Below are positions 6,277-56,454 of a stretch of DNA of 57,643 nt, piece by piece. The stretch lies in the IMG/VR virus record IMGVR_UViG_3300031942_000005, positions 1-57,643 of that record; one strand, given 5' to 3'. The notes under the pieces are model-generated. The model was given only the letters and a program-made list of their open reading frames with translations. It was not told the DNA's origin and did not search any database. Each line of letters begins with the position of its first letter. Position 1 is the first letter of the stretch. The position numbers were made by a program, and so were the translations under genes. This DNA comes from a virus. Lineage: Duplodnaviria; Caudoviricetes.

Positions 6277-6416
6277 GCGAGGAGACCTGCCGTTCGTGCG
6301 GCGCGCCGATCACCTGGGTCAAGACGGAGTCGGGCAAGTGGATGCCGCTGGACCCTGACGGCACCTCGCACTTCGCCACCTGCCCCGACGCCGCCAAGTG
6401 GCGGAAGAAGCGCTGA
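6273..6416 (+). CDS. small Zn-finger phage protein
   Basis: CRSCGAPITW...GKWMPLD...SHFATCP. Confidence 0.75.
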   Translation: MSEETCRSCGAPITWVKTESGKWMPLDPDGTSHFATCPDAAKWRKKR

Positions 6417-9055
6417 TGGACCGCACGATCGAGTACATGCCCGTGGCCGAGCTGGTCGAGCGCTTCCACCCGGCCAACCCCAAGGACCACGACCTCGAGG
6501 AACTCAGACGTTCGATGGAGCGCTTCGGCTACACCGAGGCGGTCATGCTCGATGAGCGCACCGGGCTCATGGCGGCGGGCCACGGGCGCATCGAGATACT
6601 CGCCCACGACATGGCCGAGGGGCTGTCGCGCCCCGACGACGTGACCGTGGACGAGCGGGGGTGGCTGGCCCCGGTGCAGCGGGGCTGGCACTCCCGCAAC
6701 GACGTCGAGCTGCTGGCCTACGTGGTGGCCTCCAACCGCATCGCGGAGAAGGGCGGGTGGGTGGACGCCGGGCTGGCCGACGCCCTCCAGCTGATCGCCT
6801 CCACCTCCGAGCTGGGCCTCGAAGGCATCGGCTTCAACCTCGACGACCTGGCCGCGCTCAAGTACACCGGACCCGACGAGCCGGACCAGATCATCGCCAG
6901 CCGCAAGCTGGCCGAGCGCTTCTTGGTCCCACCCTTCTCCATCCTCGACGCCCGCCAGGGCTACTGGCAGGAGCGCAAGCGGGCCTGGATCGCACTCGGC
7001 ATCCAGAGCGAGCTGGGCCGCCCGCAGAACGCGCTGCGCCCCGAGATACCCACCGAGGGCAACGCCCGGCTGCGCAGCGGGGCCTACGGCGCCCAGGCGC
7101 ACATCGGGCCCGACGGCCGGCTGGTCTACACCCCCACGGTCGGCATCGTGTCGATCTTCGACCCCGTGCTCTGCGAGGTGGCCTACCGCTGGTGGTGTCC
7201 CTCGGGAGGCCTGGTGCTCGATCCCTTCGCCGGGGGGTCGGTCCGGGGCATCGTGGCCGGGCGCCTCGGGCTGGAGTACGTGGGCTACGACCTGCGCGAG
7301 GACCAGATCGCGGCCAACGAGGTGCAGTGGCAGGCGATCCACGGGGAGGGGACGGTGCGCTGGATCCGGGGGGACTCGCGCGCCGCCCCTCTGCCCGAGC
7401 GGGCCGACTTCGTGTTCACCTGCCACCCAGCGGGCACTCGGGTGTCAGTCGTGGGGCGGGGGCGCGTGGCGATTGAAAACGTGGAGCCGGGGGACTACGT
7501 GGTGTCACATACGGGACGCTCGCGGGAGGTGACCGAAGTGCTGGCGCGCCAGTATTCCGGCCCGCTCTATGCCATCAAACGTTCCTATAGGCAGGCCCCG
7601 CTGCATGCCACGGCTGAGCATCCTCTGCTGGTGTCACGAGGCGGCTCCACCGCTTGGCGGCGAGCGGATGAGATACGGGTGGGCGATGAGCTGGTCGAGC
7701 CTGTGCCTACCGAGCCTCCCAAGGTGTTAGACGGCGAGATTATCTGGGAACATCCACCCCAGAAGGGCCGAGGCAGACCCCCCAGGGGGAACCGTCAGGT
7801 ATATGCCACCCCCGAGGTGTGCCGACTCCTGGGGTACTACCTGGCAGAGGGATCAATCGGCGGCCACGCCGTGCAGTACGCCTTTCATGCGGACGAGGTG
7901 GAGTACCACCGCGATGTGACCGCTCTGCATGGGCACATTTTCAGCGCCGACCTGAGCGTGAGGACGCGCCTCGCTCCTGGGACGAAGCAGGCCGATGTGC
8001 ATGCCTGTGGCGCGGTGCCCGCTCGTTTCTTCGCCAATACAGGGAGGGGCGCTCACGCGAAGAAGTTCCCTGGCTGGCTCTGGGACTGTTCCGACAACTT
8101 GCTCACCGAAACCCTTGTTGGCGTATGGCGAGGCGATGGCTGGCGCTCTGGCGGTCGGCTTGGCTATGACACCGTGAGTGAGAACCTCGCTGAGGACATA
8201 CGGAGGGCGCTGCTAAGGCTTGGCGTGGTGGCGTCAGTACGGTGTCGGCACCGCGGGGCCACCAACTATGGGTCAGCTCGCCCCGTGTGGAGCCTGACGG
8301 TGAGGGGAGCGCAGGCAGAGCGCCTGGCATCCATCCTTGGCTGGGCGCTCCCCGCCCCCACAGAGAGAGTCCGAAGCCGGGGGGACGGCAAGGCGGGCCG
8401 TGCGGCATGGTTTGGTCGCCGGCCCTCACGGAGTCCATACATCCAGGCTGGATATGTCCACTACCGGGTGGAGAAAATCGACACGAAAAGTGTCAAGGCG
8501 CTGCCGGTGTTCAATTTGGAGGTGGATGCCGACCACTCATATCTTGCCGATGGAGTGGCGACTCATAATTGCCCGCCCTACTACGACCTGGAGAGGTACT
8601 CCGACGACCCCGCCGACCTGGCGAACGCGGCCACCTACGCGGAGTTCCTGGCCGACTACGCCCACATCATCGGCCGGGCCGTCGAGAGGCTCCGCGACGA
8701 CCGCTTCGCGTGCGTCGTCGTGGGGGAGGTGCGCGACGGCGAGGGGTTGTGCCGGGGCCTGGTCCCCGACACCGTTCAGGTGTTCGAGGCGGCAGGGCTG
8801 GCCCTGTACAACGAGGCCATCTTGGTCACGCCCGTAGGGTCCCTCGCCGTCCGCGCCGCCAAGATCTTCGAGGCGGCCCGCAAGACCGGCAAGGGGCATC
8901 AGAACGTGCTGGTGTTCGTCAAGGGCAACCCCGAGCTGGCGGCGGGCGCCTGTGCGCCGGTGGAGCGTCTCGACCTCACCGAGGCCGAGGCCATAGGCCA
9001 GGACCTCCCCGAGGAGGCCCCCAGACAGCCTCAGGAGGCCCGGACCCAGGCGTAG
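6416..9055 (+). CDS. ParB-like N-terminal domain plus DNA amino-methyltransferase, intein-containing
   Basis: HPANPKDH...RFGY...AGHGR ParB-like motif; LDPFAGG SAM-binding motif; FT|CPPY motif IV split by the intein. Confidence 0.88.
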   Translation: MDRTIEYMPVAELVERFHPANPKDHDLEELRRSMERFGYTEAVMLDERTGLMAAGHGRIEILAHDMAEGLSRPDDVTVDERGWLAPVQRGWHSRNDVELLAYVVASNRIAEKGGWVDAGLADALQLIASTSELGLEGIGFNLDDLAALKYTGPDEPDQIIASRKLAERFLVPPFSILDARQGYWQERKRAWIALGIQSELGRPQNALRPEIPTEGNARLRSGAYGAQAHIGPDGRLVYTPTVGIVSIFDPVLCEVAYRWWCPSGGLVLDPFAGGSVRGIVAGRLGLEYVGYDLREDQIAANEVQWQAIHGEGTVRWIRGDSRAAPLPERADFVFTCHPAGTRVSVVGRGRVAIENVEPGDYVVSHTGRSREVTEVLARQYSGPLYAIKRSYRQAPLHATAEHPLLVSRGGSTAWRRADEIRVGDELVEPVPTEPPKVLDGEIIWEHPPQKGRGRPPRGNRQVYATPEVCRLLGYYLAEGSIGGHAVQYAFHADEVEYHRDVTALHGHIFSADLSVRTRLAPGTKQADVHACGAVPARFFANTGRGAHAKKFPGWLWDCSDNLLTETLVGVWRGDGWRSGGRLGYDTVSENLAEDIRRALLRLGVVASVRCRHRGATNYGSARPVWSLTVRGAQAERLASILGWALPAPTERVRSRGDGKAGRAAWFGRRPSRSPYIQAGYVHYRVEKIDTKSVKALPVFNLEVDADHSYLADGVATHNCPPYYDLERYSDDPADLANAATYAEFLADYAHIIGRAVERLRDDRFACVVVGEVRDGEGLCRGLVPDTVQVFEAAGLALYNEAILVTPVGSLAVRAAKIFEAARKTGKGHQNVLVFVKGNPELAAGACAPVERLDLTEAEAIGQDLPEEAPRQPQEARTQA
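7421..8569 (+). mobile_element. Intein (383 aa) with LAGLIDADG homing endonuclease
   Basis: Starts CHPAGT; block B ATAEHP; LLGYYLAEG and LVGVWRGDG motifs; ends VFNLEVDADHSYLADGVATHN then Cys +1; atypical codon usage. Confidence 0.93.
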
Positions 9056-10774: not shown

Positions 10775-11017
10775 GTGAATGCGGGCGACATCGTCGCGAT
10801 CGTCACCGGCCTCGCCGCTCTGGTTTCTGCCGTCGCCGGGGTCATGCTGGCCGTCCGTGCCGCGCGCTCGAAGGAACGGGCGGCCCATAGCGAGGAGCTG
10901 GAGTCGGTGACCACCCTGCTCGAGACCGAGCGCAAGGAGCGCATCGCCGCCGAGCTGGACCGCCATCAGCTGCGCCTGCGGCTGGCCGAGAACGGGATCG
11001 ACCCCGATGCTCTATAG
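10775..11017 (+). CDS. membrane protein, putative holin/lysis accessory
   Basis: N-terminal TM helix and coiled coil, directly after the endolysin. Confidence 0.6.
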   Translation: MNAGDIVAIVTGLAALVSAVAGVMLAVRAARSKERAAHSEELESVTTLLETERKERIAAELDRHQLRLRLAENGIDPDAL

Positions 11018-11663
11018 GTTCTTCCGCGTCATCTACCGCAATGCCTCGGCGGCCTTCATCGTGGCCTGCCTGTTCACCATCGTGGCCGTCCTCGCCCTCG
11101 CCCTCGGAGCCGAGGCGACACCCACGCCCGGGCCGACCGGACCAGCCGGCCCGCCGGGTCAGAACGGGCCAGCCGGGCCCAAGGGGGACCCCGGGGCGAC
11201 CGGACCTCAGGGCAGCACCGGCCCCACCGGCTCGGCCGGGGCCGACACCGACGCCGGGGGCTCCAGCTCAGGTGGCGGGACCGGCGCGGCCGGGAGCGGG
11301 GGGGCCACTGGCGGCGCGGGGACAGCGGGGACCACCGGCTCGGCCGGGGCGACGGGCAGCGCGGGGGCCACCGGCTCGGCCGGGGCGACGGGGTCAGCTG
11401 GCTCGACGGGCAAGACTGGGGCCACCGGGGCGACCGGGGCTATGGGCAGCGCGGGGGCCACCGGCGCCCAGGGTCCGCCCGGGCCACCCGGAGCGACCGG
11501 GGCCACAGGTGCGACCGGTGCGACGGGTGCGACGGGGGCACAGGGGGCCAAGGGCGAGACCGGACCGGCCGGGCCGCCGTGCCCGCCTGGGTTCAAGCAG
11601 AACCTCATCCAGGTGAACGGCCCGGGGGGCGGCCAGACGATCCTGGTGTGCGTCCGTGGCTAA
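11007..11663 (+). CDS. membrane-anchored collagen-like protein
   Basis: TM helix, Gly-X-Y repeats, C-terminal CPPG...VC. Confidence 0.8.
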   Translation: MLYRFFRVIYRNASAAFIVACLFTIVAVLALALGAEATPTPGPTGPAGPPGQNGPAGPKGDPGATGPQGSTGPTGSAGADTDAGGSSSGGGTGAAGSGGATGGAGTAGTTGSAGATGSAGATGSAGATGSAGSTGKTGATGATGAMGSAGATGAQGPPGPPGATGATGATGATGATGAQGAKGETGPAGPPCPPGFKQNLIQVNGPGGGQTILVCVRG

Positions 11664-19059: not shown

Positions 19060-19285
19060 AGCTGCGCCCGGTCCGGATCGCCTCGGCGCCAGCCTCGGCG
19101 TCGAGGAGGTCCAAGATGCGCTCCGCCAGCTTGCGCAGCGTCTCGACGGTCCCCTCGACCACCGCCACCGAGTCGAAGCCGATGCAGAGCGCGAGCTCGT
19201 CGTCGACCTCGCCCTCACCGATGAGGGCGCCTCGCTCCAACAGCTCGAGGTGGTCGCCCTCGACCCACTCGTAGTGGACGCTCAC
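19052..19285 (-). CDS. acidic hypothetical protein
   Basis: GTG overlaps the ssb stop. Confidence 0.6.
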   Translation of the reverse strand: MSVHYEWVEGDHLELLERGALIGEGEVDDELALCIGFDSVAVVEGTVETLRKLAERILDLLDAEAGAEAIRTGRSYG

Positions 19286-19656
19286 GACTCGGCCCCACGG
19301 GTGGAGCGGCGCTCGGTCCGCGCCACGTCGGCGGTCGCCCACTTGAGGCTGGGCCCGATGTCATCGGCGGTGAGTTCGACCTTGGAGCGGTGCTCGCCCG
19401 CCTCGGTCTCCCACGACCTCTGCTCCAGGCGGCCGGTCACGACGACGCCCATCCCCTTGGTGAGGGACAGCGCCACGTTCTCGGCCAGGTCGCGCCAGGC
19501 GATCACGTCGAAGAACGACGTGGATTCCTGCCACTCCCCGTCCTGTTGCCACCGGCGGTTGACCGCGACGCCCAACTGGCATTGGGCCTGGCCTTCCCTG
19601 GTGTAACGGATCTCGGGCTCCCTGGTGAGGTTGCCCGTGATGGTCACGGTGTTCAT
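19282..19656 (-). CDS. ssb: single-stranded DNA-binding protein (no acidic tail)
   Basis: NTVTITGNLTREPEIRY...VAVNRRW...WRDLAENV..SL.KG..VVVTGRLEQRSWE. Confidence 0.95.
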   Translation of the reverse strand: MNTVTITGNLTREPEIRYTREGQAQCQLGVAVNRRWQQDGEWQESTSFFDVIAWRDLAENVALSLTKGMGVVVTGRLEQRSWETEAGEHRSKVELTADDIGPSLKWATADVARTERRSTRGAES

Positions 19657-19729
19657 GGTTTCTCCTCCTGTTGATGATGCCGAGTGGCATCGCGGGAGGG
19701 CCGGGCGACCGGCCCTCCGACGCTGGCAC

Positions 19730-20164
19730 TCAGGCCCAGGTGGTCTGCGCGTGCAGGCGCTCGATGCGGCCTTCTCGGACCGTGTCACGCCACCGCTCGC
19801 CTTCCTCGCCCCGCCATTGGAGGTAGCTGCCCTCGGTTGCGTAGGGCGCCAGCCGCTCGATGAACAGGTCCTCTTGGCCCGTCTTGGAGTCGTAGCCGAT
19901 GATGTGGAGCCCTCCCTCGTCGCTGTCGAGGTCGAAGCCCAGCATCCTCAAGATGGCCGCGAGGTCCGCGCACACGGCCCGGTCGTCGTAGTGCTCGTCC
20001 ATCCAAGCGAACCAGGCCGCCTTTTTTCCGCCCGGCCCCCACAAGCCACCGGTCTTGTCAACCGATGGGTCGGTGTTGAGGGCGCGTAGTGCCGCGTCGG
20101 CCTGCTCCAGGTTCTTGCGAGGGACCGTGAAGTCGGCCTCCTCGATCTGGACGTAGTAGCCCAT
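19730..20164 (-). CDS. conserved hypothetical phage protein
   Basis: Conserved start motif; YDSKTGQE...LAPYATEGSYLQWRGEEG. Confidence 0.8.
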   Translation of the reverse strand: MGYYVQIEEADFTVPRKNLEQADAALRALNTDPSVDKTGGLWGPGGKKAAWFAWMDEHYDDRAVCADLAAILRMLGFDLDSDEGGLHIIGYDSKTGQEDLFIERLAPYATEGSYLQWRGEEGERWRDTVREGRIERLHAQTTWA

Positions 20165-23364: not shown

Positions 23365-23685
23365 TCAGCGCTGGCAGAGCGGGCAGAACCTCGCCGCGCT
23401 CTTTTTGCGGTTCTTGATCCGCCGCTCGTCGTGGCGCGTACCGGGTTCGGTGTGCACGACCACCATCTCGATGCCCGCGCGGGCAGCGGCGGCGGTGATC
23501 GCGGCACCCCGACCGGCCTGGTGCTCGGCCAGGCGTCTCTCGACGCTCACACCGTTGGTCCAGCCGATGTAGTGGCGGGCCCAACCGTGGGACTTGGCCG
23601 GGTCACCGAGGGGCTCTGAGAAATGGAGCACGTAGATGGTGCCCGGCTCGCCGGCGACGCTGTCGAGGCGGAACCGCGGCGTCAC
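23365..23685 (-). CDS. GIY-YIG nuclease
   Basis: TIYVLHF...HYIGWT...VERRLAEHQAGRGA...ERRIK. Confidence 0.82.
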   Translation of the reverse strand: MTPRFRLDSVAGEPGTIYVLHFSEPLGDPAKSHGWARHYIGWTNGVSVERRLAEHQAGRGAAITAAAARAGIEMVVVHTEPGTRHDERRIKNRKKSAARFCPLCQR

Positions 23686-23912
23686 AGCGCACCGGCGAAA
23701 CCGGCGGCGGCGATCGCCAGGGCGGCCATGAATGCGATCAGCGCCAGGGTGGCGATGATGCGGTCCACGACGAAGGCGACCCGGGGGCTGATGGCTCCCT
23801 CCTCGTCCTCGATGCCCAACTCGGTGGCGGCGTCGAACTGGGGCTCTGTGAAGTAGTCCCACAGATCGACGACCTCGGCCACGTCGGCGTCCTGGTCATA
23901 GGGCTGCTGCAT
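23682..23912 (-). CDS. small membrane protein
   Basis: Acidic N-terminus, C-terminal TM helix; start motif. Confidence 0.7.
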   Translation of the reverse strand: MQQPYDQDADVAEVVDLWDYFTEPQFDAATELGIEDEEGAISPRVAFVVDRIIATLALIAFMAALAIAAAGFAGAL

Positions 23913-23998
23913 GGTTTTCCTCCTCGGTTGTGGCGCCGGGACGCCGCTCTGATTCCCGGGGCGGGGCACCCGGCGAACCGGGTACCCCTGCTCGGGCG

Positions 23999-24244
23999 TC
24001 AGGCTGGCTGCACCTCGACACGCTCGAACGCCGCGGGGCCGGCGCATACGGTGATGCGGACCCAGTCGGCGCCCCTGCGCTCCAAGGCGTCGAAGAACCA
24101 GCTCTGTGACCCCTCGACCCGGTGCTCGGGGGTGGTGGTGACCACGACCGTGCGGGTGCGCGAGCCGAAGGCGACTCGGCTCTTGCGCTCCAGGTAGATG
24201 TAGTCACCGGGAGCGAGGGCCGATATGGGGATGCTGCTCTGCAT
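23999..24244 (-). CDS. hypothetical protein (SH3-like)
   Basis: Conserved start motif; LAPGDYI. Confidence 0.7.
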   Translation of the reverse strand: MQSSIPISALAPGDYIYLERKSRVAFGSRTRTVVVTTTPEHRVEGSQSWFFDALERRGADWVRITVCAGPAAFERVEVQPA

Positions 24245-24335
24245 GGATTTCCTCCTGTGTGTGGCGCCGGGACGCCGACTTGGTGCTGCTCCCGGGTCGG
24301 GCGCCCCAGCTCTCGCTGAGACGCCCTGCTCGGGC

Positions 24336-24692
24336 TCAGGCGACCGTGGGGACCATGCCCTTGGGCAGGACCTGGAGCCGCTGGGTGCACTCGAACTCCC
24401 AATGGGGGCCGGGCAGGGGCGCCGATACGGCCGTGGCTGGCCGATTCACCGCGTGCACCGAGACCTTGGCGCCCCGCCGAGACACACTTGCGATCTCGTA
24501 GTGGTGGCGGAGGCCCGAACCCGCTGCGAACAGCAGGTACATGCCTGGGTGCAGGTCACCCGCCCGGCACCACGAACCCGGAGCCAGCTTGCCCGTGGAG
24601 CGATTGCGAACCGCCGGTGGGGCAGGCTGCCAGCCGAGAGGGACGTGCTTGCGAACGGCCCTGGCCTGGCGTGCCATGTGGATGCGTGCCAT
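24336..24692 (-). CDS. basic hypothetical protein, first gene of the leftward block
   Basis: Conserved start motif; LHPGMYL. Confidence 0.65.
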   Translation of the reverse strand: MARIHMARQARAVRKHVPLGWQPAPPAVRNRSTGKLAPGSWCRAGDLHPGMYLLFAAGSGLRHHYEIASVSRRGAKVSVHAVNRPATAVSAPLPGPHWEFECTQRLQVLPKGMVPTVA

Positions 24693-25458
24693 GGATTTCC
24701 TCCTGTGTGTGTTTGGACCCGGGGCGGGGGCCCGACTCAAAATGCGCCCCCCCAGGGGCACAGGACCATGAACCTGTGCCCGAGAGGCGGCACACGCCGA
24801 AACGTGCTCCGCATAGGAGAACCGGAGTGCCCAACCCCGGAACTTCGTGGCTCCTCGATTCCCTCACGGACTGCGACCCGGCTCGCCACCGGGACCCGTG
24901 AGGGGCTCTACCAACCACTGGGACAGGGGGCCTCTGCACGAACCCGCACCTTGCGGGAACCCGAGCCTCTGAGCGGGGTGATTTACTCCCCGCAAACCGG
25001 CGCCTCCACTCGACGCAACCCGGCCCCTGGCAAGAACGCTGGCACTCCCTGCGATTCCGCAGCCGGGGGTGACCCCCGACGCCTCCTCCGTGGCGCCCAG
25101 CGCTGGACAGCCCTGCCGATTTCTCCCCCGGCGCCTCAGTGACGCTCGACCGGGTGGGGCGCTCAAAACCTCGGCTGGCCTCCAAATGCTCCAGCTCGCC
25201 CCAGCAGAACCTCCTGCCTCCGCCCCGCCTCAATGTGGAGGCGGGTGCCCCCCGAGAGGGGCACCCCCGAGGCTAGCCCCCTAGCCCCCCAACCGCAAGC
25301 CGCCGGGCCGAGATGGAGGGTGTTTACGGAGGGGGGCTCCGCTTATAAAACGCTGTGACCAGGGGATATGCGGAAAAGAAGTTGCACTGGGAGTGACGGC
25401 TCTGCCGACTCGGTCCGTGCACGACACCCCAGTTGTAGGGTCCGCCAGCGATGCCCAG

Positions 25459-25689
25459 CTGTGGCACAGTTGCGAAATGGAGTCGCCCACCCTGCGCATC
25501 CGGCTCGACGGCGATTTGCTGGCCTGGCTCGATGAGGAGGGGAAGAAACGGGATCTGACCAGGTCCGAGTTCGTGCGATTCGTGCTGGAACGAGCTCGAG
25601 CCGGTCAGGCCGGCCCTCAGCGACCTGTGGCACAGTCTGTGGCACAACAGCGTCCAGCTGTGGCACAGCAACCCCGACCTGTGGCACAG
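25459..25689. repeat. Five palindromic CTGTGGCACA(G/A) sites
   Basis: At 25459, 25625, 25637, 25658, 25679. Confidence 0.9.
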
Positions 25690-25806
25690 CGCCCCAAACA
25701 GCGTTCGTCGGTATACCCATTTGAACCCGCGGATTGCCCACACAAGCACGTCCGCACGGATGGAACCTGCGCCCAGTGCGGCATCCAGCGGCGCCCCGGC
25801 CGCTGA
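25477..25806 (+). CDS. ribbon-helix-helix (CopG-like) regulator with C-terminal Cys/His motif
   Basis: TLRIRLDGDLLAWLDEEGKKRDLTRSEFVR; CPH...CAQC. Confidence 0.8.
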   Translation: MESPTLRIRLDGDLLAWLDEEGKKRDLTRSEFVRFVLERARAGQAGPQRPVAQSVAQQRPAVAQQPRPVAQRPKQRSSVYPFEPADCPHKHVRTDGTCAQCGIQRRPGR

Positions 25807-26426
25807 CACCCCATCCCATGAGCCCTGCTCATGCGTGCCTAGGCTGCCAGGAGCGCCCCCCAGAGCGCCCCCAGAGCGCCCCAGTGCCCCCGCGGGTAGG
25901 TAGGGCGCCCGGCGGCCATTGCGGCCCTCACAAGGCCGTGTAGCGCCAGCGCCAGCCCGTCGGCATCGCCAGCCGCCAGCCCCCGCCAGCCCGCCGGCCA
26001 TCGCCAGCCCGTCCGCATTCGCCAGCCTGGCGGCCTGTCGGCAGAACAGCCCTGTTCAGAGAACCGCCTGTTCGCCAGATCGGCGGTTCGGCCCGGCCGC
26101 CCCCCCGGCGGCTCCGCCGGGCCGGCCAGCCCGACGGCCTGTCGGCAACGCGCCCAGGGCATAGGTGCCCAGGAGCGCCTGAGAGCGCCCCAGGGCGCCC
26201 CCCACGGGGCGCTCCCGCGCCCCCGCGCCAATTGCCCTGTACCCCCTGGCAGGGGCGCTACGGGGCGCCTAGGCGGGGCGCGCAGGAAGCCTGCGTACCC
26301 TCGCAAGAATTCACCTAATTGCCGCCCCGCTTTGCTATGCGGGGGGTAAGGGTACTAGCCTGGTGCCAGGCGCCACCAAGGGCGCCACGGAGAGCACCCC
26401 CACGGGGGGTGCTGAGGAGGTGCTCA

Positions 26427-26894
26427 GTGAGCACTAGCAAGGGCAGTAGCAAGGGCAGTAAGTGGGAGCGCACGTATAAGGGCGCACTGGGAGCGGTGCC
26501 TGCCGAGCGGGCCTACTGGGTGTGCACTGGCACCCCCGCCCCGGAGGGCTACCCCGGAGCGCACGCACCAGGGGCGCGCCTGCCACGCACCAAATTCCCC
26601 ACTACGGGGCGCAAGGGGGAGCAGGCCGCGGCCGCGCGGCGCACGGGTGAGTGCCGGAGTTGCCGTAATTACCGGCTAGGGCGTAGTGCTACAGGCGCCA
26701 CGCAGGCCGAGCAGGCGCGGCGCCTGGCGCGTGAGGTGCGGGCCGAGCGCATGGCCGAGGGCGCACGCAAGGCGGCCGCCACCCGCGCCGTACGCAAGGC
26801 GCAGCGGGAGCAGGAGCAGGCGGCGGCTGCGCTCCTGGCACCCCCCGCTCCCGCGGCCGAGGGGGGCGCCCCGGCCGAGCAGGAGAGCGCCTAG
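26427..26894 (+). CDS. basic Zn-finger protein without Asp or Ile; candidate first-expressed gene
   Basis: GAGGAGG RBS; C..G...FPTT...RTGECRSCRN motif shared with 22036..22932. Confidence 0.7.
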   Translation: MSTSKGSSKGSKWERTYKGALGAVPAERAYWVCTGTPAPEGYPGAHAPGARLPRTKFPTTGRKGEQAAAARRTGECRSCRNYRLGRSATGATQAEQARRLAREVRAERMAEGARKAAATRAVRKAQREQEQAAAALLAPPAPAAEGGAPAEQESA

Positions 26895-26944
26895 GCGCCA
26901 CGGGGAGCACGGGGGGCGCGCCAGCATGGGCGCCCCCCAGCCCC

Positions 26945-27000
26945 AGCCCTGGCAGCCCCGGCTCATTCTGGGGCTCCCATTTTCTTTTTTTTCCAGGGCT
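26945..27000 (+). terminator. putative intrinsic terminator / T-tract hairpin
   Basis: AGCCCCGG-loop-CTGGGGCT stem followed by TTTTCTTTTTTTT. Confidence 0.55.
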
Positions 27001-27369
27001 GCGTGACAGCTGTCACCCCGCCCCGAAATTTTTCGAGAAGGCCCGCCACTGATATAGCTCGGCCGCCCGATTCTTTTTCGAGATGTGCCGCCACCTCCGC
27101 GGGCCTCCCCCCACACCCCCCTCTCTGCGACTCTCAGGAGAGCTGGGGGGCTGAGGCTCTGTGACAAGTGGGTGAGAGACTGCGGCGGCCGGCGCCTCGG
27201 TGCAGCGCTACTGACTCTCCGCCGGGGTGACCGGCTCGTAGGGCGTGGCGGAGCCGGGTGCAGAGGCCGGCTCCGACACGACGGGCTGGTGTGAGGGGGA
27301 ATTGACACCGGCCGCGCCTGGCCCCAGCGTAGGGTGGCGCGGTGCGCGGCAGCATGACTGTGACCACCG

Positions 27370-27507
27370 GTGCGGTGCTGGCTGCTGCATGACTGGGGGG
27401 CTTGGGAGACCAGGCACTGCGGGGCGCACATGGGGCGCCTGGTGGCAATTCAGGTGAGGCTCTGCGCGAGGTGCGGCAAGCTGCACACGAGGCGCAGGGA
27501 GAGGTAG
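27370..27507 (+). CDS. small Cys/His protein
   Basis: VRCWLLHDW...CARCGK; stops 2 nt before terS; translated by hand. Confidence 0.45.
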   Translation: MRCWLLHDWGAWETRHCGAHMGRLVAIQVRLCARCGKLHTRRRER

Positions 27508-27509
27508 GG

Positions 27510-28121
27510 GTGAGCGAGGGACAGCAGCAGCTCGAGGGACGGCTCGATTCGCCGCAGGGCTCGGTGGCGTGGCAGGAGGCCAACTCCGCGCTGCAAGATG
27601 AGGCGTATGAGCTGTATACCCAGGGCCTCACGGTGCGCGAGGTGGCGGATCGCCAGGGGTGCTCTGTAGAGACCGCCCATAGGCGAATTAAGTACGGCGA
27701 GCAGGCCCAGCCCCCGCAGTCTCCCGACACCCTCAAGCAGGGGCAAATTCGCTCTCTGATGCGCCAGAAGCGAATTGTGCTGGGGGTAATTGCCCACCCG
27801 GCGCACAAGGTGGACCACGGGAGGGTCGTGATGGACCCGCTCACCTCACAGCCCATGGTGGACCAGGAGATGATCCTCAAGGCCTCCGCGGAGCTGCGGA
27901 GAATTGAGGAGGCGGTGATGCGCTTGGCCGGTACGCGCGCCCCAGTCGTCCACGAGGTCCACGAGATCACCGAGGAGGCCATAGATGCCGAGTACCAGCG
28001 CCTCATCACCTCCCTCCCCCGCCTCCCCGCCCTCGCTCTCCCAAGAGGAGGTGGCGAGCCGGTGGGCGGAACTCTCCAGGGAGGAGAAGCTCGAGTACCT
28101 CCAGGCGCTCAAGCGGGCTGA
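27510..28121 (+). CDS. terS: terminase small subunit (HTH)
   Basis: GLTVREVADRQGCSVETAHRRI HTH; immediately upstream of terL. Confidence 0.75.
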   Translation: MSEGQQQLEGRLDSPQGSVAWQEANSALQDEAYELYTQGLTVREVADRQGCSVETAHRRIKYGEQAQPPQSPDTLKQGQIRSLMRQKRIVLGVIAHPAHKVDHGRVVMDPLTSQPMVDQEMILKASAELRRIEEAVMRLAGTRAPVVHEVHEITEEAIDAEYQRLITSLPRLPALALPRGGGEPVGGTLQGGEARVPPGAQAG

Positions 28122-29661
28122 GGGGGCCGAGCGCGCCCGGCGCTGGGCCACCTACGTCTCAGGGTGGTACTGCTACGAACTCACCTGTGGTGGCGAGCCG
28201 CACGAGGGCTGGCACTGGTGCGAGCACCCGCTCGATTCGCTCGATCACACCTCGGCGTGCCGCCACTGCCGCTCCGAGCAGAGGCCGCCGGAATTCGAGT
28301 GGCTGATCTGGCTCTTTCAGGCCGGGAGAGGGGCTGGCAAGACCCGCTCTTTTGCCGAGTGGATCATAGATCGCGCCCGTAAGGGCCTCGCCAAGAGAAT
28401 TGCCCTGGTAGGGAGAGTCCCGAGCGATGTCCGCGACGTCATGGTGGAGGGCGAGAGCGGCATCATGGCGTGCTCCCCCCGCGATTTCATGCCGGAGTAC
28501 AAGCCCTCTATACGGCGGCTGATATGGCCGAATGGGGCGGTGGCAATTACGTACTCCTCGGAGAACCCCTCTGAGCTGCGGGGGCCGCAGCACGATACGG
28601 CGTGGTGCGATGAGCTGGCGGCGTGGCGCGATGCGCGCAAGGGGGACGTAATTGATACGACCTGGAACAACCTCATGCTGGGGCTACGGCTTGGGAGCGA
28701 TCCCAAATGTGGTGTTTCCACCACCCCCAAGCCCGTCAAGCTCATAAAGCAGCTCGTGGAGGCACCCGGCACCGCCGTCACGGGGGCCACCACCTACGAC
28801 AACGTGAAGAATCTCGCACCGCCCTTCGCCGCCCAAATTCTCAAAACGTACGAGGGCACAAGAATCGGCCGCCAAGAGGTAATGGGCGAGCTCCTCACTG
28901 ATGTGGAGGGTGCGCTGGTTCATATTTCCATGATCGACGACACCAGGGCCTCCCGGCCCCCCGAGGGAGGCTTCAAGCGCGTAGCGATCGGCGTCGATCC
29001 AGCCACTACCTCCGGTGAGCAGAGCGATGAGACGGGGATCGTGGCCGTGGGGGCGGGCTATGACGAGCAGGGGTATGTGCTGGGGGACTACTCGGTGAAG
29101 GCCGGGCCCAGTGCCTGGGCCAAGCAGGTAGTGAAGGCGTACCGGCTCTATGGGGCTGATGTGGTGGTGGTGGAGGGCAACCAGGGGGGGGATGCCTGGG
29201 CGCAGATAATTCACTCCATAGACCCCGCGGTACGGGTCGTCAAGGTGACGGTCCGGCACGGCAAGCGCCTACGGGCTGAGCCCGCCGCCGCGCTCTACGA
29301 GCAGGGGAGGATGCACCACATGGGCACCTTCCCCGCCCTCGAATCTGAGTGGACCGAGTGGGTGCCTGATGCTGAGGACAGCCCGGACCGTATGGATGCA
29401 CAGGTGCACGCGCTGGCCGAGCTGGGGTTGTTGCGCTTCGGCCAGGGCTACGCCTTTTCCGAGTACTGGAAGCGGGTGGGCAAGGATGCGCCGCGGCCGG
29501 TGGGGGGCGGGCCTCCTCCGCCGCTCGCCCTACCCCCCGCTGTACGCTGCGCCCCTGGTGAGTGTTTCTACGGCCCCGCGGAAATCGGCACCGGCGCCCG
29601 CCGCTGCACCCGCTGTGGGCTCCCCCCGGAGCGGGTGAGTGCCACCCAGAGCGCCTCCTAA
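27985..29661 (+). CDS. terL: terminase large subunit
   Basis: Walker A AGRGAGKT; LRGPQHDTAWCDE Walker B; IGVDPA, DETG and SPDRMDA nuclease motifs. Confidence 0.96.
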   Translation: MPSTSASSPPSPASPPSLSQEEVASRWAELSREEKLEYLQALKRAEGAERARRWATYVSGWYCYELTCGGEPHEGWHWCEHPLDSLDHTSACRHCRSEQRPPEFEWLIWLFQAGRGAGKTRSFAEWIIDRARKGLAKRIALVGRVPSDVRDVMVEGESGIMACSPRDFMPEYKPSIRRLIWPNGAVAITYSSENPSELRGPQHDTAWCDELAAWRDARKGDVIDTTWNNLMLGLRLGSDPKCGVSTTPKPVKLIKQLVEAPGTAVTGATTYDNVKNLAPPFAAQILKTYEGTRIGRQEVMGELLTDVEGALVHISMIDDTRASRPPEGGFKRVAIGVDPATTSGEQSDETGIVAVGAGYDEQGYVLGDYSVKAGPSAWAKQVVKAYRLYGADVVVVEGNQGGDAWAQIIHSIDPAVRVVKVTVRHGKRLRAEPAAALYEQGRMHHMGTFPALESEWTEWVPDAEDSPDRMDAQVHALAELGLLRFGQGYAFSEYWKRVGKDAPRPVGGGPPPPLALPPAVRCAPGECFYGPAEIGTGARRCTRCGLPPERVSATQSAS

Positions 29662-32847: not shown

Positions 32848-33113
32848 ACCGCACCCAGCGGCGCCAACTCGAGCGCTCTGTGGGGCACCGGGGCTCCAAG
32901 GCCAAGCGCAGGGGACGCCCCCGGCCCGAGCGCGCGCCGGAGGGCCTCCCGCCCATCTTGGCCCCCGAGCTGCCCCCCGCTGTACAGGACCACATGGCGC
33001 GCCACGCCGCGCGCACCGCGGGCCTGCTCGTCCCTCCCTCCCCCCAAGAGCGCGAGGCGCTCGTCCGAAAGGGCCACACCGTGCCGAGTGAGTCAGGCCT
33101 GATCCTGCCGTGA
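32844..33113 (+). CDS. basic hypothetical protein
   Basis: NRTQRR start; coupled on both sides. Confidence 0.55.
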
Positions 33114-35230
33114 GGATCATCGACAGCCCCACCGAGGGCAATCTTTTCGTCAATCCCAACGAGACGGCGGAGTGGGACATCACCGTGCACGGCAATGTGT
33201 CGGTGGCGATCCAGCCCGAGCCCGACTACGGCGTCGTCACCCACCTGTTCCTCATCCTGCGTGACGACGGGAACAACAACGAGCTGACCTTCGCCGACAC
33301 GGTGCACCTCAACCGCCCGCTGGGGCCGCTCACCGTGGACGCCATGTACCTGCACCTGGCCTCCCTCGACGGCACGCACTGGTACCAGGACGCCCAGGTG
33401 GACACCGGGGGCTCCGCGGCCGTACCACCGGGCGGTGGGGGAGGAACCCAGGGGCCACCGGGACCTCCGGGCCCCCAGGGCATCCAAGGTGACCCCGGAC
33501 CTCCCGGGCCACAGGGCGATGCTGGCCCCGAAGGCCCCGAGGGCGCCACCGGGGCAGATGGAGCGCCGGGACCCCCAGGGCTGGACTCCACTGTGCCCGG
33601 GCCTGTGGGCCCACAGGGGGAGACCGGACCGCCCGGCGCCGATGGCGTGCCGGGCCCTGCGGGAGCGGACTCGACCGTGCCGGGCCCCGAGGGCCCCCCT
33701 GGGCCTGCGGGGGTGGACGGCGCGGTGGGACCCGAGGGCCCCGCCGGCGCCGACAGCACGGTCCCGGGCCCGGTTGGTCCCCAGGGCCCCCAGGGCCCCC
33801 AGGGAGACACCGGCTCACCGGGCGCAGATTCGACCGTGGCCGGTCCACAAGGCGACCCCGGCCCCGCTGGCGACACCGGCCCGGCCGGGCCCCCGGGCCA
33901 GGACTCGGTGGTGCCGGGGCCTGCTGGACCCGCTGGCCCTCTGGGACCACAAGGTGATCCCGGTCCGGAGGGACCAACGGGAGAAATGGGCATCCAAGGC
34001 GATCCCGGCCCAGCTGGCCCGGCCGGGGCAGACTCCACCGTGCCCGGACCTGCGGGCGCTGACGGCCCACCGGGACCCCAGGGCGAGCCCGGCCCCGCGG
34101 GTCCGGCCGGTGCCGACTCGACGGTGCCGGGGCCTGCCGGACCACAAGGTGACCCCGGGCCGCCGGGCGCGGACAGCACCGTGGCCGGTCCCATGGGGCC
34201 ACAGGGTGACGTGGGGCCTACGGGCGCAACCGGACCTCCGGGCGCGGACTCAACCGTCGCAGGCCCTCCTGGCGCCGACGGGCCACCCGGCCCCGCGGGC
34301 CCTCCCGGCCCTGAGGGACCGACCGGTGCAGACTCCACCGTGCCTGGCCCCGCAGGGCCGCAGGGTGTGGCCGGACCGGCTGGCGCGGACTCCACGGTGC
34401 CCGGCCCTGCCGGACCGCAGGGCCTCCAAGGCGATCCCGGGCCTGCCGGGCCGCAGGGACCGCCCGGGCCGGGCTACCAGGCCAACGTCGACGTGCAGGC
34501 GTACACCACGCCGGGCAGTTTCACCTGGACCAAGCCCGCCAACATCACCATCGTCCACCTGATGTGCCAGGGGGCCGGTGGCGGCGGCGAGAGCGGGCAG
34601 TCCTCACCGGCCAACACCGTGGCGAACGGCGGGGGCGCGGGTTCGGCCGGTGGCTATACCGAGGCGCCGTACCTCTCGGCCGACATGTTCCCGGCCACCC
34701 TGACCATCGCGGTCCCGGCCGGTGCGCCCGGCGGGGCCTCGCCCGCGACCGGCCAGAACCCCGGGCAGACCACCCCGGGCGGGGCCTCGGCCACCGACGG
34801 CACCGGCAAGGTCTACTGCTTCGCCGGAAACGGTGGGGGTGGTAGCGGCGGCCAGCCCGGTGCCGCGGCCACCGACGCGGCCTTCGTCGGTGGCGTGGGC
34901 GGTCCGGGCGGTCAGAGCGGCGAGCTGGGCGGCAGCCCTCCCGAGACGACTGGCACCTACTCGGGCGGGGGCGGAGGCGGCGCGGCCGTCGACGACCTCG
35001 GTGACACCGACATAGGCGGCGCCGGTGGCGTTCCGGTCGTGTGGGGCTGGGAGCAGGGCCTCGGGGGCGAGGGCGGAGCCTCCAACGCCAACGGGACGGG
35101 CGACGACGGGGCGGACGGCACGGCAGGCGGAGGCGGAGGAGGGGGCGGGGGCAACAATGGCCGACCCTCGTTCCAGGCCGGGGCGGGCGGCAAGGGCGGA
35201 GACGGCTACGTCGTGGTGATCTCCTGGTGA
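33110..35230 (+). CDS. collagen-like fibre protein with glycine-rich C-terminal domain
   Basis: Long Gly-X-Y run interrupted by DSTV; [10 protein letters not shown]...GAGGGG...[11 protein letters not shown]. Confidence 0.85.
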
Positions 35231-54687: not shown

Positions 54688-56454
54688 GTGGCCTGGTCCA
54701 TCGCCCAGCGCCTCACCGTCACCCCGACGACCAACACCGGGACCTCGATCACCCTGGCCCACGCGCTCGGCTCGGCGGTGTCCACGACGAACCGCATCTT
54801 GCTGTTCATCGGGGTGAGCCACACCGCGGGCTTCATGCCTACCTTCGCCATCAGCGACAGCCTCGGGAGCACCTGGACCCAGCTGCTCATCAACCACGTC
54901 TACACCGCCAGCGGCGGCACCACCTCGCCCGAGATCTGCGTCGTCTACACCTGCGTCCCGGCGTCGGCGGGCACCATGACCATCACCGTCAAGTCCACCC
55001 CCACCGCGAGCAGCACCAACGAGATCGGCTGGACCGCCGCGGAGGTCTCGGGCCTGGACATGTCGGCGGGGAGCGGCTGCCTGCGGACCAGCGGCATCGG
55101 CACGGGCAACCAGGGGGGCAGCGCGTCCACCTCGGTGCCCTGTGGCACCACCGCCGCGGCCGATACCAGCGGCGACCTCGCGCTGGCGTTCGGGACGGAC
55201 TGGGGGGACACCCTCACGTGGTCGGTGAGCGGCACCGGGTTCAGCATCGACACCGGCCTGTCGATCAACGCCAACGCCACCCAGAACGTGGTGGTGGCGA
55301 CCAAGACCGGCACGGGCACCACCGACACCGCGAGCTTCACCTACACCTCGACGGCCACCGCCAACGTGGCGGAGGTCCTCGCCATCAAGATGGTGAGCGC
55401 CCCGCCTACCGGGACCGCTGCCATCGCCCTGGCCGGCACGGCGAGCATCGGGCCGGTCACCGGGCCCGCCGCCCTGGCGCTCATCGCCGCGGGCACCGTG
55501 GGGCCGGTCAGTGGCGGCGCCCTCCTCTCCCTCAGTGCCGCCGCAGCCAGCGCACAGGCCGCGAACGCCACGTTGAGCCTCGGAGCCGCGGCCTCCAGCA
55601 TCGAGGGCGCAGGAGCGAGTCTGAGCCTCTCTGCGGCCCAAGGAGGGGCCGTCGCGGTGAGCGCGGGGGCCACGCTCGACCTCGAAGCCACCGGGGCGAC
55701 ACTCTCGGTGGGGGCGGGCTCGCTCAGCCTGACCGCGGCCGGCGCCATCGTGGCGGGGGCACCCGCGGTCCTGGCGCTGTCCGCCTCGGCCAGCGTCGGG
55801 GCGGTGGCGCAGAGCGCCACGGCGGCCGCCACGGTCGATCTCGAAGCGACGTGCACCGCCACGGGTGGGCAGACCAACCCCACCGCCACCGCGGCGATCG
55901 CCCTGGTGGCCCCGGGCACCCCCACCCAGAGCTTCGCCGCCGGGTCGCTGGCGCTCGCGGCGACGGGGGCGGGGCTGCTGAGCGCGGTGACGGGCACCGT
56001 GGACCTGGAGGCCGCGGTGGGCGCGCCCGTGGCGGTCAGGGGAGGGGCCGCGCTCACCCTCGCGGCGGCGGCGAACGCCGGGGGGACCACCGTGGCGACG
56101 GCCGGCGCGGCGGTGACGCTCCTCGCCACCTCGGCCACGGTGGCGGCGGCGGGAGCGGTGGTCACCCTGGCGGCGCACGGACCGATGCCCAGCGCGGCGG
56201 CGGCGGCGCACGTCACCCTCGGCGCCTCGGCCCTCGCCCAGCCACCCCCGGCGACCGCGGCGGCGGTGGTCGTGCTGCGCGCGCAGATGAGCGCGTGGGT
56301 GGTGCCGATCTTCTACTTCCTCTCGGCGGCCCGCCTCCCCGACTTCGTCGGCGCCACCCGCGACCCCAGCTTCGAGGGCGCCGAGCGCGACCTGGCCCTG
56401 GAGGCGACCGAGCGCGAGCTCGTCGCCGAGGCCGGAGGGACCTGGCGGTCGTGA
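54688..56454 (+). CDS. Ala/Thr-rich fibre protein
   Basis: N-terminal beta domain followed by Ala-rich repeats. Confidence 0.7.
   Translation: MAWSIAQRLTVTPTTNTGTSITLAHALGSAVSTTNRILLFIGVSHTAGFMPTFAISDSLGSTWTQLLINHVYTASGGTTSPEICVVYTCVPASAGTMTITVKSTPTASSTNEIGWTAAEVSGLDMSAGSGCLRTSGIGTGNQGGSASTSVPCGTTAAADTSGDLALAFGTDWGDTLTWSVSGTGFSIDTGLSINANATQNVVVATKTGTGTTDTASFTYTSTATANVAEVLAIKMVSAPPTGTAAIALAGTASIGPVTGPAALALIAAGTVGPVSGGALLSLSAAAASAQAANATLSLGAAASSIEGAGASLSLSAAQGGAVAVSAGATLDLEATGATLSVGAGSLSLTAAGAIVAGAPAVLALSASASVGAVAQSATAAATVDLEATCTATGGQTNPTATAAIALVAPGTPTQSFAAGSLALAATGAGLLSAVTGTVDLEAAVGAPVAVRGGAALTLAAAANAGGTTVATAGAAVTLLATSATVAAAGAVVTLAAHGPMPSAAAAAHVTLGASALAQPPPATAAAVVVLRAQMSAWVVPIFYFLSAARLPDFVGATRDPSFEGAERDLALEATERELVAEAGGTWRS

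Follow-up and report, generated by a model that had tools for sequence, protein, structure and literature searches.

Local loss of defence targets in the DNA that enters the cell first is established for phages like T5 and T7, as stated in parts of PMC10644984 and PMC12455610, and the initial annotation of the DNA studied here relied on this premise. In the account given in PMC10644984, restriction-modification, CRISPR and Ssp systems restrict T5 and BF23 only when the terminal repeat that is injected first contains sites, and a section of PMC12455610 reports that Autographiviridae escape a Type I system when its motif is absent from the leading region. Local motif purges are footprints that enzymes leave when they act on phage DNA at one given moment or site. 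In the 57,643 nucleotides (nt) of the IMG/VR virus record IMGVR_UViG_3300031942_000005 (below, the window: the whole stretch analysed, a linear record with a CheckV completeness of about 62% and a G+C content of 69%), a zone of 861 nt, positions 26144 to 27004, contains neither GAC nor GAT (together GAY) nor their reverse complements GTC and ATC (together RTC). It lies beside the terminase genes and carries a gene for a protein of 155 amino acids (aa).

The purge goes far beyond the avoidance of sites that has been described in the leaders of T5 or T7. By analogy, the nearest known kind would be the local loss of defence targets in first-entering DNA; what appears new, compared with leaders, is the complete removal of a degenerate 3-mer from both strands of one 0.86-kb cassette, with a protein-level footprint in diverged homologues. 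Our preferred reading, to which we give a probability of about 0.35, is that the cassette is a target-free leader or terminal segment that would help the phage evade a defence.

A both-strand gap in four trinucleotides

GAC, GTC, GAT and ATC occur 3443 times in the window, i.e. 59.7 per kb, and yet each is found 0 times in the zone, as the initial annotation had claimed; this holds for coding as well as non-coding DNA and on both strands. The flanking occurrences are at 26141 on the left and 27005 on the right, which makes a gap of 864 nt with no start from 26142 to 27004; the next-largest gaps in the window measure 164, 151 and 146 nt. Among the 64 trinucleotides, only these 4 are missing from the zone. 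There, GA is followed by G (27 times) or A (2) only, and TC is preceded by C (7) or T (5) only, both dinucleotides being scarce in the zone generally. The earlier estimate of about 40 expected occurrences was of the right order: 51.3 are expected from window frequencies, 30 from the adjoining non-coding DNA (52 in 1499 nt), and 14.8 from the first-order Markov model of the zone itself, an expectation already reduced by the GA/TC shortage.

Could the gap have arisen without selection, as a by-product of the repeat vocabulary (GCGC iterons, an open reading frame (ORF) rich in Ala, Arg and Gly) or of context-specific mutation? The zone is of low complexity and rich in iterons, TC and GA are low as just said, and an iteron block outside the zone (block A, Table 1) is itself GAY-free over 146 nt. 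However, GAY does arise in all the shuffles, whether dinucleotides, codons or words up to 10 nt long are preserved (P from <2×10−4 to 0.004). With dinucleotides preserved, shuffles of the whole zone contained 14.9 GAY/RTC on average and 5 at the minimum (zero in 0 of 5000). Applied to the parts of the zone, the same procedure gave P=0.0016 for the non-coding 5′ part (283 nt) alone, zero in 0 of 5000 shuffles for the ORF part, and P=0.17 for the 3′ part (110 nt). A codon-aware null, named in the initial annotation as the comparison that could overturn the depletion, was then applied to the ORF with the protein fixed and codons drawn by phage usage: the mean was 9.4, and zero was reached in 0 of 20000 trials. 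Shuffling codon order, which retains junction effects only, gave a mean of 9.1 and zero in 0 of 20000, and shuffling the order of words of 3 to 10 nt gave means of 4.8 to 16.9 (P≤0.004). A deamination-type mutation signature was rejected, as the expected products are not consistently enriched in the zone: GTT and AAC are found once each and ACC 12 times vs 22 expected, though ATT (7) and AAT (5) exceed the roughly 2 expected for each. Asp, moreover, is missing from three diverged homologues of the encoded protein (see below). An origin without selection is therefore the explanation to which we give the least credit. The purge is genuine and very strong, and neither composition, codon usage nor repeat vocabulary accounts for it; that selection acted at the DNA level against GAY in a functional cassette is, in our judgment, highly probable.

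A scan of the 32 reverse-complement trinucleotide pairs over the window gave a log10P of about −10.8 for the GAC/GTC gap and of −6.3 for the GAT/ATC gap, which extends over 972 nt. These are the two most extreme of the 32 pairs, they are co-located, and each strand form is depleted alone. Among other words, AAC/GTT (1+1) and GAA/TTC (2+5) are mildly low in the zone, and TA-containing words are raised. Classical restriction-site avoidance, that is depletion of palindromes of 4-6 bp, was not found in the zone, where the only missing words are those containing GAY. GATC is present 270 times in the window, which speaks against avoidance on a genome-wide scale, and several palindromes are enriched in the zone (GGCGCC, 9 vs 1.6 expected; RGCGCY, 14 vs 3.4; GCGC, 36 vs 9.9). 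Gaps of some 4-mers are longer than the zone: GGTC/GACC are missing over 1553 nt (25676-27229), GGAC/GTCC over 1508 nt (26011-27519), GATC over 1570 nt (26078-27648) and GAAC/GTTC over 1983 nt (26086-28069), so that, for the 4-mers containing GAY, some depletion extends past the strict zone. GC skew shows no clear switch at the zone.

Four near-identical metagenome contigs (99.7-99.9%) of the same phage all keep the zone, at 863-865 nt. They differ by 5 variants inside it, none of which creates GAY, a number too small to carry weight. A comparable gap, for any of the 32 pairs, was absent from 79 loci with a related large terminase, TerL (1.23 Mb of viral contigs and prophages; 26 IMG/VR and 53 genome loci, TerL identity 40-56%), and none of these has a GAY-free island. 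The best gap among them reached a log10P of −7.1 and is a compositional AAA/TTT effect; the largest GAY/RTC gap in the 26 IMG/VR loci is 177 nt. Because they are too distant, the 79 loci are uninformative on this cassette. No comparable gap was found either in 50 motif-matched viral loci (0.44 Mb), which are GC-rich chance matches of a scan of IMG/VR for the iteron pattern. The only long gaps among them, those of locus L097, were rejected as a parallel, this being a compositional island short of many AT-rich words. A blastn search with 25000-28500 against cultured phages returned no close DNA relative, and the protein in the small-terminase (TerS) position has no relatives in IMG/VR, while in JGI metagenomes it matched nothing beyond 4 contigs that belong to this phage itself. 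In a limited library, supplements excluded, no description of a trinucleotide-free island in a phage was found.

Anatomy of the cassette and its protein

The zone coincides with one complete cassette, made of iterons, a putative promoter, a ribosome-binding site (RBS), a gene and an intrinsic terminator (Table 1). Its location beside the packaging genes, as first annotated, holds: some 400 nt separate it from the TerS-like gene, which directly precedes the gene for TerL. Both edges are sharp. On the right, the zone ends 12 nt past the T-run of the terminator, at the start of the palindrome GTGACAGCTGTCAC, one of 7 perfect palindromes of at least 14 bp in the window; by post hoc arithmetic, the chance that such a palindrome starts 5 nt or less from a zone edge is about 0.003. 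On the left, a 23-nt repeat ending in CCTGTCGGCA has its second copy before the edge, and the first site outside the zone is CCTGTCGGC (26137-26145), duplicated at 26033-26041. The promoter is a reading by eye and remains putative, since a scan of 23500-28500 with the sigma-70 consensus called 0 sites.

Table 1. Positions, in the window, of the GAY/RTC-free zone and of the features around it (RHH, ribbon-helix-helix; HTH, helix-turn-helix).
Feature	Position	Strand	Remarks
ParB-domain/DNA methyltransferase fusion	6398..9055	+	PHROG 498 and ParB PHROGs; Pfam N6_N4_Mtase, Intein_splicing, LAGLIDADG_3
RHH-like DNA-binding gene, 109 aa	25477..25806	+	PVAQ-repeat linker, Cys/His-rich tail; candidate iteron reader
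Iteron block A	25845..25910	+	three tandem AGAGCGCC units of 11-nt period, plus one GGGCGCC; tandem repeat 25851-25882
GAY/RTC-free zone	26144..27004	both strands	861 nt
Iteron block B	26152..26290	+	RRGCGCM motifs about every 10 nt, ahead of the putative promoter
Putative promoter	26332..26361	+	TTGCTA, 18 nt, TAGCCT; only AT-richer patch; by-eye reading
GGCGCC/GGGCGCC motifs, then RBS GAGGAGG (26414-26420)	26363..26425	+	between putative promoter and start codon
Gene for the 155-aa zinc-ribbon-like/basic protein	26427..26894	+	GTG start, RBS 6 nt upstream
Intrinsic terminator	26954..26992	+	8-bp GC-rich stem, 6-nt loop, then TTTTCTTTTTTTT
Perfect 14-bp palindrome GTGACAGCTGTCAC	27003..27016		its GAC and GTC are those that end the gap; might be a cleavage site or an operator
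Two 32-nt direct repeats, 75% alike	27018..27094	+	followed by a TGAC-rich non-coding stretch to 27400
HTH protein, small-terminase position	27402..28121	+	from codon-phase GC; start codon uncertain; directly before TerL
Large terminase TerL	27985..29661	+	Pfam Terminase_6N 4×10−20, Terminase_6C 6×10−14, PHROGs; homology from about residue 95 of the ORF

That the zone stops 12 nt after a terminator would fit an RNase-proof transcript: the mRNA of the cassette, and its antisense, would lack the triplet read by an endoribonuclease, for example a MazF-type toxin or a host-shutoff RNase. Three-base specificities are found among mRNA interferases, and naturally motif-free mRNAs exist. But GAY and its complement are both absent, so that the RNase would need two specificities, or antisense transcription would have to be complete, and the terminator is one-directional. 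The purge also starts some 220 nt before the one plausible promoter, in DNA that is not expected to be transcribed, and protection from an RNase appears hardly probable. Taken together, the absence of GAY as well as RTC and the purge of DNA upstream of the putative promoter favour a reader of double-stranded DNA over a constraint on RNA or protein.

The protein encoded in the zone lacks Asp and Ile altogether, as initially annotated (0 and 0; P=1.3×10−7 at the amino-acid frequencies of the phage). It is basic, with 20 Arg and 8 Lys vs 14 Glu and no Asp. None of its Val codons is GTC, a codon used for 246 of the 665 Val (37%) phage-wide, and the junctions between its codons hold 0 GAY/RTC vs 9.1 expected. 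With 14 Glu and 0 Asp, no GTC-Val and clean junctions, it is the protein that bends to the DNA rule. The symmetry of the purge between strands, its presence in untranscribed DNA, its indifference to frame and the loss of Asp, GTC-Val and ATC-Ile thus point to a reader of double-stranded DNA (or of both single-stranded DNAs) with a target as short as GAY.

Exhaustive phmmer searches of 1.84 billion representatives found 2 homologues of the 155-aa protein (P0002), and a profile search 4 more; these six (P0004-P0009) are encoded on contigs of 531-3683 nt. The initial annotation had proposed to check such homologues for avoidance of Asp and GAY, and at the protein level the outcome is positive: 3 of the 6 have no Asp (P0004, 0/144; P0005, 0/166; P0007, 0/153), like the window protein (0/155), and the other 3 have between 1 and 9 (P0008, 1/106; P0006, 3/96; P0009, 9/278). 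At the rate of the Asp-containing members, a complete lack of Asp in the three Asp-free homologues, 463 residues in all, has P=3×10−6. Alignment columns that hold Asp in other members are filled by Glu, Asn, Pro, Ala, Lys or Arg in the Asp-free ones. The Asp-free proteins (4 of the 7 in the family) share only 39-48% identity, and two of them are nearer to Asp-containing members (61%), which suggests that the trait is old or has been selected repeatedly. The constraint behind the loss of Asp looks old, as far as the protein alignments go, and selection at the DNA level may have acted in the homologues too. Scans of IMG/VR with A1 and A2 gave no DNA of the homologues, their genes were absent from the 5 genomes and the sample of 401 genomes of one class that were searched, and tblastn of family members against the loci gathered for this analysis found no member.

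In the window protein, C33, H46, C76 and C79, together with FPTT and RTGECRSCR, form a zinc-ribbon-like core. The family alignment conserves C33, G35, a second Cys or H46, FPTT and RT-x-ECR-x-CR, followed by a basic Ala/Lys/Arg tail, and from these residues the conserved core looks like a zinc ribbon. The AlphaFold2 model, built without an alignment, is confident for a helix at residues 93-137, in the basic Ala/Arg-rich C-terminal tail, and low for the remainder. No match was found in Pfam, PHROG, NCBIfam or PDB, nor at ≥0.9 in the ESM Atlas. A word-indexed search returned one match only, a deletion variant (P0003) from an 891-nt assembly from elsewhere. It is identical to residues 1-37 and continues in another frame from about 26848, which agrees with the loss of 307 nt between two direct repeats, GGCACCCCCGC (26531) and GGCACCCCCCGC (26837). 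Such a variant would be without the zinc-ribbon core.

Turning to the iterons, tandem units of 11 nt (25851-25882) and 10 nt (26168-26201), about one helical turn each, are found near the putative promoter, and blocks A and B are related by direct repeats at a spacing of 330-333 nt. In the zone, GGGGCGC/GCGCCCC are found 13 times vs 0.66 expected and GCGCC/GGCGC 39 times vs 7.7, and the 36 GCGC are mostly in the form RRGCGCM. RHH regulators of the CopG/Arc/omega/ParR type use tandem iteron operators or centromeres, and the arrangement here is alike, with an RHH-like gene directly upstream of tandem 10-11-nt iterons flanking a putative promoter. The product of this gene matches Pfam RHH_1 at residues 8-38 with E=0.01, below the cut-off, and NCBIfam aCcr1 with E=7×10−4; AlphaFold2 predicts helices at residues 12-24 and 29-41 with a pLDDT of about 85, and its best Foldseek matches, all with E>0.3, are the RHH proteins NikR, YiiF, DinJ, PutA, ParD and HicB. 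The assignment is thus sub-threshold but concordant, and the protein likely reads the downstream iterons. The comparison with RHH/iteron systems nevertheless stops at the operators, which leave the purge of a whole gene unexplained, besides resting on that sub-threshold assignment. Four copies of CTGTGGCACAG at 25455-25689, inside the RHH-like gene, encode the repeated PVAQ linker. Between 25800 and 27050, Pu-GCGC is found 27 times on the + strand and 21 times on the − strand, with about 6 expected on each. It matches the form of the single-strand nick consensus in the annotation of the T5 record (5′-NPu pGCGCN-3′), which places one major nick inside the injection-stop region, at the border of the first-step-transfer DNA; the likeness here is one of motif form only.

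Genome ends and candidate readers of the motif

The initial annotation started from the last-packaged, first-ejected end of a cos phage such as lambda. This premise is not supported: TerL belongs to the T4-type family (Pfam Terminase_6N/6C), with no match to lambda GpA or HK97-type families, and relatives have exact direct terminal repeats in 3 of 3 records. The earlier interpretation is supported in part, by the purge itself, by the packaging neighbourhood and by the outcome of its proposed check on homologues. Among cultured phages, the best-covering TerL matches are the Tank-type Arthrobacter phages, with about 40% identity over 81% of the query. Tank and Wilde are listed with 589-bp direct terminal repeats (PMC5513430 Table 1), and we verified exact terminal repeats of 589 bp in Tank, 953 bp in BruhMoment and 587 bp in MellowYellow. 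The terminase therefore falls in a lineage that makes terminal repeats, though at a TerL identity of only about 40%. These three phages also share the layout seen here, in which a leftward-transcribed right arm extends as far as the end and ParB-like, HTH/TerS, RHH and TerL genes occupy the left end; the RHH gene adjoins TerL in BruhMoment and MellowYellow. The exact repeats of the relatives and the shared layout make fixed ends somewhere in 24.7-27.4 kb plausible; by this synteny, the ends need not be at the zone. For the Brevundimonas phages, which have the nearest TerL, no packaging mode was found. In Tank, BruhMoment and MellowYellow (L135, L137 and L139), the right-hand repeat copy shares DNA with the last leftward gene, of which it takes in the 5′ part or almost the whole (in BruhMoment, gene 114 lies at 66271-67137 and the repeat starts at 66366), so that this gene is partly duplicated at the left end.

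With its 861 nt, the zone falls within the 587-953 range of the relatives' repeats, and it might itself be a direct terminal repeat, or the stretch between terminase nicking sites, kept free of a short nicking motif containing GAC/GTC. The sharpness of both edges would fit, with CTGTC present in CCTGTCGGC on the left and in the palindrome GTGACAGCTGTCAC on the right, as would the symmetry between strands, which suits nicks on both, and the short distance to terS. We know of no terminase nuclease with a 3-nt specificity, however. None of the 4 known terminal repeats examined shows a trinucleotide purge, the repeat of the relatives overlaps the first leftward gene and not a rightward cassette, and GAT/ATC are purged too, which a GWC-type site does not require. 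Nicking by the terminase is in our opinion quite unlikely to be the reason for the purge.

A replicative primase, of the phage or its host, starting at 5′-RTC-3′ is another possible reader: the segment would have no start sites on either strand, so that linear ends would stay single-stranded and anneal into concatemers, or would be left unprimed for some other reason. Strand symmetry and indifference to coding are both predicted by this idea. Primases are classic readers of trinucleotides; for T7 primase, a portion of PMC12839067 gives the site 5′-(G/T)2GTC-3′, and GGTC/GACC, the core of preferred T7 primase sites, are the words whose absence extends over 1553 nt here. T7 itself, on the other hand, keeps 7 GTC/GAC within its own 160-nt terminal repeat, the 4 actinophage terminal repeats are unpurged (0/4), and Pfam scans of 62 ORFs in the window found no primase gene, in a record about 62% complete. 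We consider the avoidance of primase starts very unlikely.

The preferred reading, a target-free leader or terminal segment, can be put as follows. Selection would keep one cassette, lying between a leftward early arm and the rightward terS-terL-structural arm, free of a GAY target on either strand of double-stranded DNA, because the DNA of this cassette would be exposed in the cell at a time when the remaining genome is not yet protected. The segment would be leading or terminal, comparable to what T5/BF23 have in their first-step-transfer repeat and T7-like phages in their leading region. The gene on it would be expressed first, and until then the segment would have to stay invisible to a frequent-cutting or modified-site-dependent nuclease. 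Three steps go beyond the observations: the segment may be first-entering or terminal, the reader of GAY may be a defence nuclease, and the 155-aa protein may counteract it.

Several likenesses support such a reading. In the T5 record and in what PMC10644984 presents, the first-step-transfer DNA of T5/BF23 is a discrete segment beside a long, repeat-rich non-coding region, with its own early genes, and the defence sites in it decide sensitivity. The TerL lineage here, like T5, also makes terminal repeats. Unlike the cassette, however, the T5 segment measures 10 kb, is without particular sites of 5-13 nt and has no gap at the trinucleotide level, none being found in the first 30 kb of T5; here, 0.86 kb is completely without a degenerate 3-mer, while two-step entry, terminal position and an anti-defence role are only conjectural. 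With T7-type leaders, as treated in part of PMC12455610, the cassette would share the confinement of defence-motif loss to first-entering DNA around or upstream of the first expressed gene. T7 (NC_001604.1, L142) has 0 GCA/TGC in 1-573 vs 17.6 expected from its first 12 kb, and GAA/TTC are absent from 91-515. The leading region of T7 is a genuine one, and its gap, of the same type as here though weaker, means that the purge of a leader can show at the trinucleotide level. The GCA/TGC gap may reflect Type I half-sites (GTGC for EcoKI, in the list that forms part of PMC10644984) or the repeat structure of the left end. The two systems differ in that the present genome is of siphovirus type (tape measure and tail tube genes) with a different TerL, and in that the purge is far stronger here (51 vs 17.6 expected), its target being 3 nt and not a bipartite Type I site.

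A number of points weigh against a target-free leader. To our knowledge, no defence system has a bare 3-nt GAY target. No trinucleotide pair is missing from the terminal repeats of Tank, BruhMoment, MellowYellow and Amigo (1584 bp in the latter), and with all 4 of these repeats and the first 30 kb of T5 unpurged, a purge is not a general property of such ends. The Tank-type phages, which resemble the window in TerL, gene neighbourhood and leftward right arm, have terminal repeats that overlap the first leftward gene, and the equivalent here would be at about 24-25 kb. As placed by synteny, the repeat would lie 1-2 kb to the left of the zone, and with rightward packaging from there the zone could enter last. 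Metagenome contigs run across the zone and both its edges, and other restriction-type palindromes, GGCGCC among them, are enriched in it. The 155-aa protein belongs to no known family, and the deletion variant P0003 indicates that its gene may be dispensable. The homologues' lack of Asp might, from their sequences, be a trait of the protein. Anti-restriction proteins of the Ocr/ArdA type are strongly acidic DNA mimics, a type to which the basic 155-aa protein, with no Pfam or PHROG match, does not conform.

Contig depth, considered as a test for a twofold repeat, was contradictory between runs, consists of one figure per contig and was not used (run X1, 11.6 for the contig covering 25218-27219 vs 8.7-9.1 beside it; run X2, 21.5 left of 25395 vs 18.8 across the zone). 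A joint 23498>29406 (side 21), like the loose ends seen at 27202 and elsewhere, was attributed to other organisms or to variants. A CRISPR protospacer-adjacent motif (PAM), a DnaA box, a −35 element and DNA bendability were dropped as explanations, as none needs all four trinucleotides removed; in the case of the PAM, local loss would not protect a genome.

The phage may also have a reader of its own. The window encodes a ParB-methyltransferase fusion at 6398-9055, and this or another DNA-modifying enzyme of the phage could mark GAY or RTC genome-wide while the cassette has to stay unmarked, for binding of RHH/TerS or ParB-domain proteins, or as a regulation or packaging signal. ParB-like genes adjoin TerS/TerL in the relatives, the zone is packed with candidate protein-binding iterons, and in excerpts of the literature ParB has been proposed to direct modification during packaging. 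Passages in PMC8256090 document phage C5-methyltransferases specific for GpC[C/T], and passages in PMC10484667 a DpdA with a strict GA motif; such examples show that phage enzymes can recognise, genome-wide, motifs no longer than two bases and a pyrimidine, and a ParB-methyltransferase is encoded here, but these passages describe no modification-free island for them. Own methylation can be combined with the preferred reading of a leader, as one free of marks would be invisible to modification-dependent (Type IV) nucleases; parts of PMC3874153 report modification-dependent restriction in soil actinobacteria and call the specificity of Mrr ambiguous.

The PDB matches of the ParB-methyltransferase, however, are weak (E about 4×10−4), and its catalytic motif reads CPPY after splicing. 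Binding sites need local protection only, not that of a 468-nt ORF and a terminator, the methyltransferase gene is 18 kb from the zone, and a literature search for a GAY-specific phage methyltransferase, the non-canonical GAY methylation ascribed to T2/T4 Dam included, gave nothing usable. We regard an unmarked cassette as unlikely, though less so than a terminase motif. The catalytic motif of N6-adenine methyltransferases is DPPY/NPPY. The spliced motif, CPPY, would be nearer to the SPPY of N4-cytosine enzymes than to the N6-adenine ones. The intein measures about 383 aa, includes a LAGLIDADG homing-endonuclease domain and interrupts precisely the xPPY motif of catalysis (…FVFT / intein / CPPYY…).

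It is also quite conceivable that the cassette of this soil-phage clade marks an undescribed DNA-acting activity that reads the 3-nt motif. Candidates are a host nuclease, a modification-dependent system directed against ParB-methyltransferase marks, or a phage primase or terminase, and the zinc-ribbon/basic protein would then be a counter-measure or an end-handling factor. Were this true, the cassette would be a natural footprint revealing the specificity of an enzyme not yet described. Something we have not thought of takes the remaining probability, a share smaller than that of own methylation and larger than that of a nicking motif.

If the purge is related to defence, it points to a very frequent-cutting or marking system in soil bacteria, with a new small zinc-ribbon protein as antagonist; if related to replication or packaging, it would show a shielding of terminal segments from primase or terminase. 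Either way, trinucleotide-free islands beside terminase genes, and small Asp-free proteins, can serve as keys for searching metagenomes.

Neighbouring genes and minor observations

By codon-phase G+C, the leftward gene block ends at the start codon at 24692; a DUF932 gene and the SSB gene (19282-19788) belong to it. Between this block and the rightward one lies a control region that is mostly non-coding. The rightward block starts at 27402 and encodes the TerS-position HTH protein, TerL, portal, protease, tube, tape measure and tail proteins. The HTH protein has weak matches to HTH_23 and Sigma70_r4_2 at residues 62-98.

A perfect 22-nt repeat, CATGGATTTCCTCCTGTGTGTG, is present at 24242-24263 and 24690-24711. 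It spans the start codon and RBS of the consecutive leftward genes 23999-24244 and 24336-24692, which thus have identical translation-initiation regions. The minus strand also has a terminator-like hairpin (24762-24743) close upstream of the first of these two genes.

At the RNA level, Rfam gave only two sub-threshold matches to miRNA models, and the fold of the stretch (z=−2.2) was uninformative. The stretch is contained in 23 soil DNA runs, and no RNA run is listed. In one small run labelled metatranscriptomic, probably DNA, only 27503-27744 is present.

ARAGORN called a tRNA-Gly of 92 nt with anticodon ACC at 56054-56145 (−). Both this length and this anticodon are unusual in bacteria for tRNA-Gly, and it is possibly a false call or a tRNA with an insertion. 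Finally, collagen-like Gly-X-Y repeats are found in two ORFs of the + strand, 11007-11663 and 33110-35230; the latter also has a glycine-rich domain and sits between the portal/MuF-like gene and the protease gene.

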